Positions 26,985-31,655 of a stretch of 32,025 bases of DNA are shown one piece after another (the stretch's first letter is position 1; every line of letters begins with the position of its first letter). A program made the translations under genes and the position numbers. The stretch covers positions 1 through 32,025 of the forward strand of contig JWZX01003049.1 of NCBI GenBank assembly GCA_001275005.1, written 5' to 3'. Below the pieces are notes generated by a model. The model made no database searches, was not told the DNA's origin, and saw nothing but the letters and a program-made list of their open reading frames with translations. This stretch comes from Chrysochromulina tobinii. Lineage: Eukaryota.

Positions 26985-28068
26985 ATGGAGTTCATCCTCG
27001 GCAGCACCACGAGCAGAACGGCCCCCGTTGCTTCTACCCGAGATGTCCTGCCATTAACGGCCGCCATCAGCATCAAACGCCCCACCGAGTGCATGGTGTG
27101 CATGGAGGCTCCGCGGAAGATCCGCTTCGCGTGCGGCCATCTTGCGTGCTGCGAAAAGTGCACAGCCGAGTGCGTTGTTGGACTATCGATCCCTCGGGCT
27201 TGCCCTTGAATGACGCCTACCGATTGAGATGCAGCTTACAATAGTTCCGCACGTCGACTCTTGCGCTCGCAGCCTGATTGCCACTGCCGACAATCGCGTG
27301 CCGCAGAATGCCTGCCCAATGTGCCGAGCAGAGATCATTGTGTGGGAGCAGTTGGGAGAGGATGACGATGCCTTCACGTATCGCCAGCCCGCTGGGCCAG
27401 TTCCAGGACCGATCAAAACCAAGCCACCGCGGCCGCCCGATCCAGCACGGTCGCCCGATGCAGTGGCACTGGACCAGGAGCCTTTCGTCCTTTTGTTTCG
27501 CGAGAGCGGCAGCGTGGGGATCAGCCTCGCACGCCCTTGGCGAGGGCCTCAGGGGCTGATGCACAGCGTGCGCGATGTGAGCTTCGGCTCACCCGCGGAC
27601 GATCTAGGGTGCCCCACGGGCGGTGTGATCCTGCATGTGAACGGAGTCAGTGTGATCGGCATGTCGCGAGCCGAGGTTCTCCAACGGACTCAGGAGCGGC
27701 CCCTCCGGATCGTGATGCGCCTACCCCTCGCGGGCGAGTGGCCGATCCCCGACCCGCCCAACCAGCCGCCGCTACGAGCCACCGTGATCCCCAAAGGTTG
27801 CTGGGACGTCCAGTATACGGTCACGTTGCCCCCGAGCGTGGTGGCTGGCGAGACGCTCATCGTTGCCATGCCGCCGAAGTACACGGTGCACGTTGCGTTC
27901 GTCGTGCCGCGCACTGTGGCTCCGGGCGCCCAGCTGCTGCTCAAAGTGGCCCCAGAGGATCTTCGGAAGCTGCGCAAAAGCCGAGGCCGTCTGGCGCTGA
28001 TCGCGATGAATATTATTCAGGCGCGGAGGACGGTACGATACTCGATAGCTACTACCCCCACGCTGTAG
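26985..28068 (+). CDS. C3HC4 RING finger protein with PDZ-like domain; exons 26985-27169, 27273-28068
   Basis: CMVC...CGHLACCEKC|...CPMCR split by GT-AG intron 27170-27272; GSVGISL...GSPADDLG...ILHVNGVSV...RPLRIV is PDZ-like. Confidence 0.8.
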
Positions 28069-28877
28069 GATCTCTAGGACGTCACGTCGAACGGGACGCG
28101 AAGACCGAAGTCGCGTTGTGCGAAACCCGAAACGAAACACTTACCTCTTTCGTTAGGGGGGAAATTGAGTAAAACACGACCAGTGTGTCGCTCGGTTGCA
28201 ACTTGCAAGCCGGACTTCTTAACCGTTTCGCGGTTCGTTCGCGGATCCTCCGGTCCGCCCCGGCGCCGGCCCCGTGCGCACGGGCCACGGCAGGTCGGAC
28301 GGGGAGACTCGTTTATTATTACGAGTACCGTACGTACCCCCGACCCGGGCACGATCTCTGTTCTCTCTGTCTCTCCTCCACTCGATGTCTCTGCCCCGCA
28401 CTCGTGGTGTGCGCCCTGCGGAAGCAACGAGCGACATGATCCGAGTCGACTCGGCACGAGCACGAGTCGCAGTCCGCGACACGACGCGGGCGCCTTCTCT
28501 TCTTGATGGGCCCGCTTGGGCTTCACACACGCCAAGCCCCGCAGCCACATTCGGCATCTCGCTTCAGAGCACTGGCGTGCCGATCCCCGCGTGTGCTTTC
28601 GCCCTGCCCCGATGCCCGAGTACGGAGAGGCGAGATCACGTCGCGTGGGCGCAGCCACCTTGCTCCCAGCGGGTTCTCTTCGCCTCACACAGTGCACGCG
28701 AGAGGTCCTAGAGAGAGCATCGCAGCATCGGCGATCCTCACCGTCCAGCCAAGCTCGTTCGCTATCGCCCCATGCACTCCCGCGGCGAGCCACTTCATGC
28801 TAGTGTGTCCTTGCCCTGTATGCACCGCGCCTTTCCGCGCTGATATACCGCGCCAGCCTGCGCCGTCGCGGCGCGTC

Positions 28878-31655
28878 TCACTTGGCGGCCTTGCCTTTCT
28901 TGGCGGCCGCAGGCTTGGTTCCCATCTCGGGCTGTGTGGGGCGCGCCACGTCCCGCAGCCGTACGGCGAGCCCGCCGCGCTCGCCAACGAGCTCGACCGC
29001 ATGGCGCTGGCCCGCCTCTTCAAAGTATTCCTCACCCACCTTGATGAAGCAGTCCACCTTGAGCAACCCGACCTTAAACTTCTCTACCTCCTCCTTGCGG
29101 AACTCATGCTTCTTCCGGAGCGCCTCGCTGAGCGCCTCGTTGAAGAGCTCGGTACCAGAAGCTGGTCGCTCACGCCCAACATTCGTCCACTTGGTTCCGA
29201 GCGCGGGCGGCTCGTTGGCCAGGTGGAGCAGGCAATAAAAGGCCTGCGCAATCGAGATGCTCTCGGGCTTGGCGGGCGGCGGCATCCGCTCGGGCAGCCG
29301 ATGCAAAGCCTGCTGGAAGTCCACCACGCGCGTCGGCGAGCCCGCACCGTCGCCCTGTAGCAGGGTCCACAGATCCTCCTTGAGCTTGCCCACATCCACC
29401 ACTGTCGAGCGGCGTGCGGTGGGCCAATCCTTGGAGCTCACCTGATGAGGGGATTACTCAGAGGTCATCAGTGCCAATCAGAGGTCATCGGGGGCCAATC
29501 CTTGGAGCTCACCTGATGAGGGGATTACTCAGAGGTCATCAGTGCCAATCAGAGGTCATCAGGGCCAATCCTTGGAGCTCACCGCGATCTGCGCCGGCGG
29601 GACGATGGGCGCGGGCGCAGGGGCGCGAGGGCCGGCGCCGGCGCCACCATCCTGCTCGTCCCCGCCACCGATATCCCATCCGCCCTCCTCGTCGGGCCAG
29701 TTGCCGTCGTCGCCGTCGTCGCCCCCGTACGCGTCGACGCCATCGGCTGCGCCCTTGCTCGCTGCACCGGGCTCGGCGGAAGAAGAGGGTCCGTTGGCGA
29801 GGGCCTGGGAGCCGTCGGCGTCCGGGAACAGGCTCTCGGTCCGGCGCTTGGCCTGACGCTGCTGGCGCTGCACGTGCCGCTCGTACGCGATGCGCTTCGA
29901 CGGGCGCTCGAAGAGCGTCTCGAGCGCCGCCATCTGCACTTGGAAGTCGCGCTTGAGCAGTGTCTCAGCCGCCTTGGCCTTGGAGAGCATCGTCTTGGTC
30001 AAGATGGTCGTCCCCTTTGTGTCGAGCGCCGCCGCGTCCTCCAGCTCAAGTACGAGCGCCGCCGCGTTCGAAAAGTCGACCGTGACCGGCTCCTTGGCCT
30101 TGCGCGCCCCCGCACCCGCGCCGGCCGCGCCTCCCGCAGCAGCCGCGCCCACACGGTTCCGGCGTCTCCTCGCTAGCTGCTCCGCCATGCTGCTGCCGCC
30201 CTGGTACCCGTTGCCCTCGAGCCCGCCCCCGTCGAGCTCGAGCTCGTCGCCGGCGTCGTCGATGAGCGATGCGGGGCCCTCGGCATCGACGAGGCCGATG
30301 AGCCCCCCCTGGGACTGCGCCACGCGCTCGTCGGGCTCGTCGGCAGCTCCGGGTCCGTCGTCGCCCCAGCCGTCGGCGCCGTCGTCGGCGAACTCATGAG
30401 CACCAGGGCTCGACAGCGCTGGGGGTGCAACCTCGGGCGCGGCGGCCAGCTCGGGCTCCAGCTCGGGCCCCGGCTCTGGCTCTGGCTCCGGCTCGGGCTC
30501 CGGCTCGGGCTCGAGCTCGAGCTCGAGCTCCGCCTCCGGCTCCTCCTCGCCGTCGTCGGGCTCGCCGTCGGGCCGCCGCTCCGCCCAATACTGTCGGAAG
30601 GCTGTCGCCACCCGGAGCTCCTTTGTCACCGTGGGCAGCAGGCCGACCAGAGCGGCCGCGGGCAGCGGCGCCGGCGGCGCGGCGACCTGCGCCTGAGCCC
30701 GCGCCGCCGCACTCGCCACCTCCGCGTCGCGCGCGTCGAGGACGAGCGTGAGGCCGTCGGCGCCGAGGTCGAGGCTGTGTACCATCAGGCCGCGCGCGCC
30801 CTTGATGCCGTACAGCGCGGAGGTGCGGTAGAAGAACGGGTCGGCGTCGGCGCCGAGTTCGTGCTTATCCATGTTTAGCTTCGACGGGTCGGTCTCCAGG
30901 TACGCGGTCGGGTTCTTGCGCTTGGGCTTCTTGGGCTTCTTGGGCTTCACGATCTTGGACTGGACGAAGTTGAACAGTTCCGTCGCCTTGGCGTCGCTCA
31001 GGTTCAGCTGCGTCGCGATCTCGTGCATGTCGGCGGGACTGGCCGTCTTCTTAGCCTCGGCCATGAGCGCGGTCATCTCTTCCACGACCGACGCCTCCGC
31101 CCACTCGGGCGCGCCCTCGAGGTCGACTGCGCCAGCCTTGGCGCCCTCCTCCTCCTCCTCCTCGTCCGCCGGGTCGTCCACCTTGGCGCCCGGCCGGTCG
31201 ATCATGCGGCGGAGCCGCTCCTGCTGCATCTCGAGCGCATCGACACGCGCCGCGATGATCCGGGAGCCCGCATCGAGCATCATCGCCCCCTTTTGGAAGA
31301 TCTCGATGGTACCGCCGGTGGAGTTGCGGTCCATGTCGCGGATCATCCGGTCCATGTCGTCGATGTTGTACGCATTCAGGAAGGCATTCTTCTTGTTCAC
31401 CTTGTTGTCCATGAAGCGCTTCATCGCGTCGCCGTAACCCTCTAGGCGTCGCTCCTGGCGACCTGGCGTTTCCTTGAGCGGTGACTTCACCTTGGCGAGC
31501 TGCTTCTGCACCGCCGCCTGCGCGGCCTCCTGGCGCTCGTTCTCGTCATCGTTCTCGTCCAGGCCGACGTCACCAGGCAGGAACCCGCCGGACAGGCGGC
31601 GCTTGCCGCCCGACGAGTTGCGCCGGGGGGCGATCACCGGCAGCGGAGAGCTCAT
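28878..31655 (-). CDS. NCAPH: Condensin I kleisin subunit CAP-H (Barren/Cnd2/Brn1); exons 31655-29583, 29441-28878
   Basis: DNKVNKKNAF, FQKGAMMLDAGSRIIAARVD, DPFFYRTSA...GARGL, VDVGKLKEDLW, ISIAQAFYCLLHLANE. Confidence 0.9.
29442..29582 (-). mobile_element. Tandem twin introner-like introns (29513-29582 and 29442-29512) with no exon between
   Basis: 22-nt gggccaatccttggagctcacc present three times (29421, 29492, 29562); each unit in sense is GTGAGC...TAATCCCCTCATCAG. Confidence 0.88.

Follow-up and report, generated by a model that had tools for sequence, protein, structure and literature searches.

The DNA analysed here, which we call the window, is a stretch of 32,025 nt from contig JWZX01003049.1 of Chrysochromulina tobinii, and its reverse strand carries the gene for the condensin subunit CAP-H (Table 1). 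Exon 1 of this gene has 691 codons and starts from an ATG at 31655, and a GT-AG intron separates it from a last exon encoding the C-terminal winged-helix region. Downstream of CAP-H, positions 27045-28068 hold what we take to be a short gene whose product would have RING-like and PDZ-like parts. A sequence-only reading had reported a module of about 69 residues standing directly after the LLHLANE motif of CAP-H, and these residues are the exact translation of the segment, in a single open frame with the last exon. The Pfam Cnd2 match to this exon covers profile positions 651-746 of 764 and stops at LANE, and the solved CAP-H chain (PDB 6qj2_B) can be aligned as far as LLHLANE, which is the same stop.

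Table 1 Features of the CAP-H locus and of its C-terminal insert, with the evidence for each
Feature	Position	Strand	Basis
CAP-H (condensin subunit 2, kleisin) exon 1	29583..31655	-	Pfam PF05786, E 7e-25; open frame
CAP-H intron, GT-AG, 141 nt	29442..29582	-	absent from X16 RNA contig; repeats D1, D2
CAP-H last exon: C-terminal winged-helix region and insert	28878..29441	-	Pfam PF05786, E 6e-10; PDB 6qj2_B
In-frame insert, 69 codons: 192-bp element and junction codons	29004..29210	-	translation; RNA contigs; cluster members
192-bp element proper, encoding the module core	29012..29203	-	family end statistics; L016/L020 identity break
5′ terminal inverted repeat, eroded, overlapping the G-x-K-W motif	29189..29203	-	7/15 matches to opposite end
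3′ terminal inverted repeat, eroded, overlapping the Y-F-x-x-A motif	29012..29026	-	7/15 matches to opposite end
Candidate left target-duplication copy, within host N-E codons, 6 nt off the element	29210..29215	-	inferred; 4/6 identical to 29006-29011
Candidate right target-duplication copy, decayed	29006..29011	-	inferred; 1/6 against the 6-mer adjoining the element on the left
Likely displaced CAP-H ending HAVEL...LAVRL, predicted wing hairpin	28956..29003	-	length fit; low-confidence hairpin
Host-side inverted repeat I10 flanking the insert, arms 28980-28992 and 29210-29222, 10-bp perfect core	28980..29222	.	repeat scan

The 16-residue stretch HAVEL...LAVRL after the insert had been read as the displaced normal ending of CAP-H. 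About 18 positions of the Cnd2 profile remain unmatched, so the stretch fits the missing end in size, and in a low-confidence model from single-sequence folding of the last exon (pLDDT 42) it forms a beta-hairpin. A search of the PDB sequences with the stretch alone gave no CAP-H match; length and predicted shape make the proposed ending likely. The recognition helix and the wing of CAP-H both contact the SMC4 head. If these contacts apply here, the module in CAP-H would lie between two SMC4-contact elements.

The insert is more AT-rich than its flanks, as had been noted (GC 0.59 vs 0.66 and 0.72). Its GC3 of 0.77 is below that of all 622 same-size segments of exon 1, and its total GC is matched by 44 of the 622. 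The earlier statement that no in-frame GT-AG boundaries occur has to be narrowed, because the insert does contain frame-keeping GT..AG pairs (GT at +30 and +37), and what stands is that none of them removes it cleanly. The window contains a single copy of the module, and the insert is present in all 14 cluster members examined from a cluster of 27, two of the 14 being partial proteins. Word-index searches returned only the window's own cluster with the single module and nothing with the last exon, and no insert-free haptophyte CAP-H was found in them.

Assembled contigs from four of the six RNA runs that contain this stretch (X11, X12, X13 and X16) were used to follow the insert in RNA. A PolyA contig of X11 spans 28600-29433, the entire insert included. 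In X16, one contig lacks the 141-nt intron and an overlapping contig bridges the 5′ junction of the insert, and a contig of X13 bridges the 3′ junction. No contig joint skipping the insert was seen in any of the four RNA-library assemblies, and splicing of the segment out of the mRNA, which would have spoken against a coding module, is thus not observed. One X12 contig extends into the CAP-H intron, and RNA libraries can contain DNA; retention of the insert in the transcript is well supported at the level of contigs rather than reads. All four runs also hold contigs with part-module matches (~85-90%) that run into other sequence, indicating that other copies lie in other transcripts. Contig 9 of X12 matches CAP-H from 28600 to 29002 and then continues, at the expected 3′ junction of the insert, with 30 foreign letters that, read in frame, bear a loose likeness to the module end; the contig may be chimeric, or it may come from an allele whose junction differs.

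A phmmer search of 1.84 billion representative proteins gave 695 proteins at E ≤ 1e-3, so the module is not confined to one gene. The best 150 of these matches and further ones from a profile search made up 221 proteins with 454 module pieces; 106 of the proteins have one piece and 115 have 2 to 14, in a set where ranking by total score favours multi-copy proteins. After masking of the modules the 221 proteins fell into 147 host groups, which is an overcount since fragments of one gene may not link. The suggestion that the module inserts into unrelated proteins is borne out by these relatives and host groups and by the empty homologous sites described below, and the motif string W..G...P..G.EL.N, offered earlier for haptophyte proteins, agrees with the family profile. 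The hosts are eukaryote-type proteins, many of them signalling or repeat proteins, and their domains include ankyrin, LRR, WD40, EF-hand, Roc-COR, TIR, SLOG/TRPM, C2, filamin, Kelch, caspase, PKS and formin. Pfam matches were found in 54 of 148 scanned hosts and belong to many unrelated families. No Pfam match covered the module itself, either in these 148 hosts or in a search with the module, and NCBIfam gave one weak match only for 21 module members. A young subfamily, 80-89% identical in unrelated hosts, comprises P0033, P0036, P0075, P0103, P0118, P0135, P0198, P0199, P0208 and P0211.

We also collected 38 metagenome loci. Several of them are like the window in tetranucleotide use (r 0.94-0.98), are likely from the same organism, and carry five more module copies in four genes, including a Sel1-repeat protein and a formin. 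Other loci (45-60% GC) come from different eukaryote-like genomes. With narrow search patterns, 0 of 17 and 0 of 26 matches in viral contigs and 0 of 31 in GTDB prokaryote genomes were confirmed, and the ESM Atlas returned phage-type clusters only, at low recognition, with no usable match. Lower GC was rejected as a family signature, because the GC3 of the module tracks that of the host locus. At L026 (10004-10225), a module copy with a 10-residue insertion of its own stands at the start of the FH2 domain of formin, a conserved cytoskeletal gene. At loci L031 and L033-L035 (45-47% GC) the host is a Cys-rich protein that belongs to no known family, and its module copy is shortened. When L033 is compared with L035, pS is 0.25 in the module and 0.81 and 0.50 in the flanks, and the low value for the module may reflect gene conversion or a small sample.

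Repeat-type introns, in a style known from haptophytes, interrupt CAP-H and one module copy. Together with the GC content and the freshwater labels of the sequencing runs, they make a freshwater haptophyte the likely host. In the CAP-H intron (29421-29583 with its repeats), two units of 70/71 nt stand in tandem, bounded and separated by three copies of a 22-nt direct repeat of exon sequence; the two units are spliced as a single 141-nt intron in X16, and the arrangement resembles a mobile intron that has been duplicated and has a long target duplication. At L021 (4752-4850), a repeat-type intron with a ~16-nt flanking direct repeat lies inside a module copy near its end, and the frame resumes after it. 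Module copies in this lineage therefore likely predate at least some such introns.

The ends of the module are sharp. Among 809 copy pairs that are at least 70% identical and come from different host groups, identity is at background (0.04-0.15) 5 residues before W8 and 5 residues after Y62. In a set of 21 DNA copies, from which the intron-interrupted L021 and L035, an orthologue of L033, were left out, the element is 192 bp long in 10 copies and the others differ by whole codons. L016 and L020, which lie in unrelated genes, are identical at 166 of 192 bases, with flanks only 9/30 and 7/30 identical; their likeness stops exactly at the inferred end bases, and both read CA...TG. The codons split by the ends are also restricted, with A/T/S/P at -5 in 63% of copies (25-33% farther out) and A/V/D/E/G at +5 in 71% (31-44% farther out). 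On the left the end position lies five bases outside the codon of G5, on the right five bases past the first two bases of P65, and the two positions are symmetric about an inverted repeat made by the codons of G-L-K-W and Y-F-K-P.

Of 190 registers compared for the inverted ends, the symmetric one scores highest (6.9/16 vs 4.0 ± 0.6), and the majority ends match in 11 of 15 positions, a score attained by 7 of 13,366 pairs. Single copies match their own opposite end at 10-11 of 15 positions in L016 and L020 and at 4-8 of 15 in the other 19 DNA copies. The codons of residue 6 are TTR in 6 of 8 cases of Leu and TCR in 6 of 6 cases of Ser. Covariation of the two ends within copies is absent (144 matches vs 151 shuffled), suggesting that the inverted repeat is a family consensus lying on amino-acid-constrained positions, and many of the end mismatches are compatible with G-U pairing. 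A per-copy scan for exact repeats, whose windows excluded W8 and in which mismatches were disallowed, found no shared ends.

A footprint of fixed length was found outside these ends in a flank test on 248 copies with both anchors, 216 after removal of redundant sites. When each of 12 left flank positions was compared with each of 12 right ones, a single cell stood out, that of the residue six before W8 against the residue six after Y62 (Z 6.5). The two residues are the same at 36 of 216 sites vs 13.8 in shuffled pairings, a number reached by 0 of 2000 shuffles, and the other same-copy cells have a mean of 14.9 and a maximum of 27. Among models of target duplication, 6 bp gave Z 7.8, and 3, 9 and 12 bp gave 0.6, 3.3 and 0.3. 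The split codons beside this cell share the predicted bases as well (91/216 vs 61.4 and 102/216 vs 77.2). The single-residue match holds for isolated copies (30/149 vs 9.9 expected); among the 67 copies that are adjacent or nested it lacks significance (6 vs 3.7). In the DNA set the 6-bp duplication is matched at 44 of 126 bases vs 30.9 (16/2000 shuffles); L016 has a perfect 6-bp target duplication, and L020, with ends that look intact, matches at only 2 of 6. Retention of the duplication is flat over an age proxy (14, 9 and 13 of 72).

In CAP-H, the mobile unit is shorter than the 207-bp insert, and its first base is codon base 2 and its last base codon base 1. Its inverted ends match at 7 of 15 positions and the directly flanking 6-mers at 1 of 6. 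The six nucleotides between the candidate left duplication copy and the element are 5/6 identical to the first six bases of the element. Read from these letters, the junction may plausibly have the host 6-mer as its target, with the right-hand 6-mer as the decayed copy, and a tandem duplication of 6 nt on the left together with 3 extra bases on the right would plausibly account for the 69 codons. The closest full copies at other sites are only 57-59% identical, suggesting that the CAP-H insertion is old, and the eroded ends and the three extra junction codons suggest that it is both old and immobile. At the empty site, the arms of the host-side inverted repeat would pair as a stem of 10 bp around a loop of 10 nt; there are only 3 stems like it in the window, and no such hairpin was seen at 22 other copies.

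The module is multi-copy and mobile in origin. An empty homologous site was found for 11 of 142 isolated copies tested. In the cleanest pair, P0217 vs P0220, the flanks are 77-82% identical and four residues stand where the insert would be; some of the other pairs involve distant homologues and imprecise gaps. The module also inserts into itself: a full copy comes after an N-terminal piece in 31 cases, 26 of which have the interrupted copy resuming farther on (14 by profile and 12 by motif). The break points fall at profile positions 27-39 (13 cases), 45-50 (4) and 58-62 (14), which are a helix end, a loop and a hairpin turn of the predicted model. Close copies in different hosts share no sequence outside the module. 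Exon shuffling was rejected as the mode of spread, as none of the copies in the loci read has flanking introns.

All 51 module pieces in the loci are on the coding strand in open frames, and a DNA profile run over the 382 kb of these loci, which were chosen through a protein search and are thus biased to coding copies, brought up none that was non-coding, reversed or out of frame. No transposase was found among 49 long ORFs near copies, and no free element ends in the 382 kb except for one 15-mer (L038, 6553-6567), which lies away from any copy with at most 2 mismatches to the right end of the element and may be due to chance. Near-identical copies with clean ends at different sites were not found, the best pair having 86% DNA identity.

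A model of the module from 34 aligned sequences (pLDDT 88, pTM 0.73) shows two strands, a helix, a second helix and a hairpin. A fold search gave no hit at Z ≥ 2 among 48,161 chains, which does not by itself prove a new fold, and Foldseek gave no match at E ≤ 0.001. PDB sequence searches brought up ferritin and TetR noise, and none matched the module to a solved structure. In a coupling analysis, contact of the first and last strands accounted for 3 of the top 40 pairs, which equals chance. The module copies are under purifying selection at the protein level: among ten 192-bp copies (45 pairs), mean pS is 0.75 and mean pN 0.35, and the youngest pair has 0.27 and 0.10. Only one of the six frames is open, as each of the five others contains stops in 12-21 of 21 copies.

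Our preferred interpretation, to which we assign a probability of about 0.8, is that the insert belongs to a widespread 63-residue module with fixed ends, likely the protein product of a non-autonomous, cut-and-paste DNA transposon of 192 bp, which is probably tolerated in exons because the passenger domain that it adds is predicted to fold by itself. To judge from the footprints, a trans-acting transposase would make its cuts at the 15-bp inverted ends, and insertion would leave a 6-bp target duplication. Element and duplication together make 192 + 6 = 198 bp, or 66 codons, a length that keeps the host frame. The added codons stay in the transcript, as seen in the RNA-library contigs, and form a predicted compact unit. 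Because of this predicted compact folding, insertions into loops would survive, the loops of earlier copies included. Selection against misfolding would conserve the terminal motifs G-L-K-W and Y-F-K-P, and since these are at the same time the two inverted repeats, coding copies would remain recognisable to the transposase longer than neutral ones.

Spread of a useful promiscuous domain through ordinary recombination or templated repair of breaks, its ends seeming sharp because selection acts on the whole fold, would accord with the purifying selection, the confident predicted fold, the frequency of signalling and repeat proteins among the hosts and the lack of covariation between the ends of a copy, as well as with the transposase and non-coding copies not found (49 ORFs, 382 kb). 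We nevertheless consider it unlikely, because it leaves unexplained why the duplication is site-specific and constant in length and codon phase, why split codons carry fixed bases and why the inverted ends are symmetric, and because the module inserts into its own loops and thereby breaks the host copy in 26-31 cases.

It is also quite improbable that the module moved via an RNA copy or a non-DDE integrase, with the enzyme making the 6-bp duplication and the inverted ends being an RNA stem. Every copy seen lies in the sense strand of coding exons, with copies clustered in the same genes, and many end mismatches could form G-U pairs, as such a route would lead one to expect; the sense-only placement, however, already follows from the blocking of the other frames. 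Neither a poly(A) tail nor 5′ truncation is present, both ends are fixed to the base, and the duplication is constant in length. LTR ends read TG...CA, whereas the best-kept ends of the module read CA...TG. Removal of the segment before the protein works, as a non-canonical intron (introner) or a protein-splicing element, is very hard to credit: repeat-flanked mobile introns exist in this organism and one X12 contig ends in foreign letters at 29002, but none of the four RNA runs has a skipping joint although the neighbouring intron is skipped in X16 and the PolyA contig spans the insert, pN is well below pS, and the module has neither the first Cys/Ser and final His-Asn by which inteins are recognised nor a match to a solved fold.

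Inteins are mobile in-frame insertions in conserved proteins, and the module, as a cut-and-paste element, would resemble them in being a mobile in-frame insertion. It differs in its size of ~65 aa and in having no splicing residues, homing endonuclease, fixed allelic site or solved-fold match. Ordinary MITEs are mostly non-coding. With MITEs the module element shares a repeated unit with fixed ends, a duplication of fixed length (a statistical result) and imperfect terminal inverted repeats; it departs from them in being coding wherever it was seen, in loci biased to coding copies. In the text available from PMC12730594, 6-bp target duplications are reported for hAT6 and IS3EU, and IS3EU has ends TAYGG..CCRTA and TIRs over 30 bp; hAT TIRs measure 10-25 bp according to the available part of PMC3942097. 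On these descriptions, the module element is similar to hAT6 and IS3EU MITEs in its 6-bp duplication, short inverted ends and lack of an enzyme of its own, and unlike them it has a selected reading frame and no neutral decay. Membership in IS3EU was rejected, because the module ends are not of the described TAYGG..CCRTA type and its imperfect inverted ends span 15 bp.

Introners are described, in the portion of bioRxiv 10.1101/2022.06.06.494994 at hand, as small non-autonomous transposons of aquatic protists, Chrysochromulina included, that invade exons and spare the host gene. Duplications or inverted ends are common among them, and the one cited from Chrysochromulina has a 4-bp duplication and no inverted ends (same source). 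Whereas introners, so described, are spliced from RNA, the module element stays in RNA and would be neutralised at the protein level.

The closest parallel comes from bacteria, where comparable in-frame coding repeats are known. The Rickettsia palindromic elements (RPEs), as the accessible text of PMC10969869 presents them, are MITE-like, ~150 bp long, inserted in frame in unrelated genes and about half coding, and each has a conserved peptide thought to be compatible with the host fold. The CAP-H module family is like these elements, as far as that text describes them, in its in-frame insertions, unrelated host genes and conserved peptide. It is unlike them in residing in eukaryotic nuclear genes, in its 192-bp length and 6-bp duplication, and in the conserved protein motifs that overlie its 15-bp inverted ends; in contrast to the half-coding RPEs of that account, every module copy seen is coding, and copies nest in one another, with up to 14 pieces per protein in those analysed. 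The best reading of this comparison is that the module family would be a eukaryotic counterpart of RPEs in its way of working and not a member of that group.

No description of the module family or of a eukaryotic equivalent was found in the full-text literature searched, to which subscription journals and Repbase do not belong. A wider view, which we hold tentatively and regard as possible rather than probable, is that the family represents an exon-dwelling lineage of eukaryotic transposons hidden by translation into a small domain whose fold has no solved relative and whose terminal motifs are the lineage's own inverted repeats, so that selection on the host protein preserves the signals for mobility. 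Such a lineage would still be spreading in some protists and nesting in itself, and it would parallel introners at the level of protein and be a lasting source of new domains. The filled and empty sites amount to hundreds of natural domain-insertion experiments, one of them at the SMC-binding end of an essential condensin subunit. They open to testing the origin of new domains from selfish DNA, the choice of loops that can accept a graft of 65 residues, and the capacity of selection on protein to sustain the ends of a transposon.
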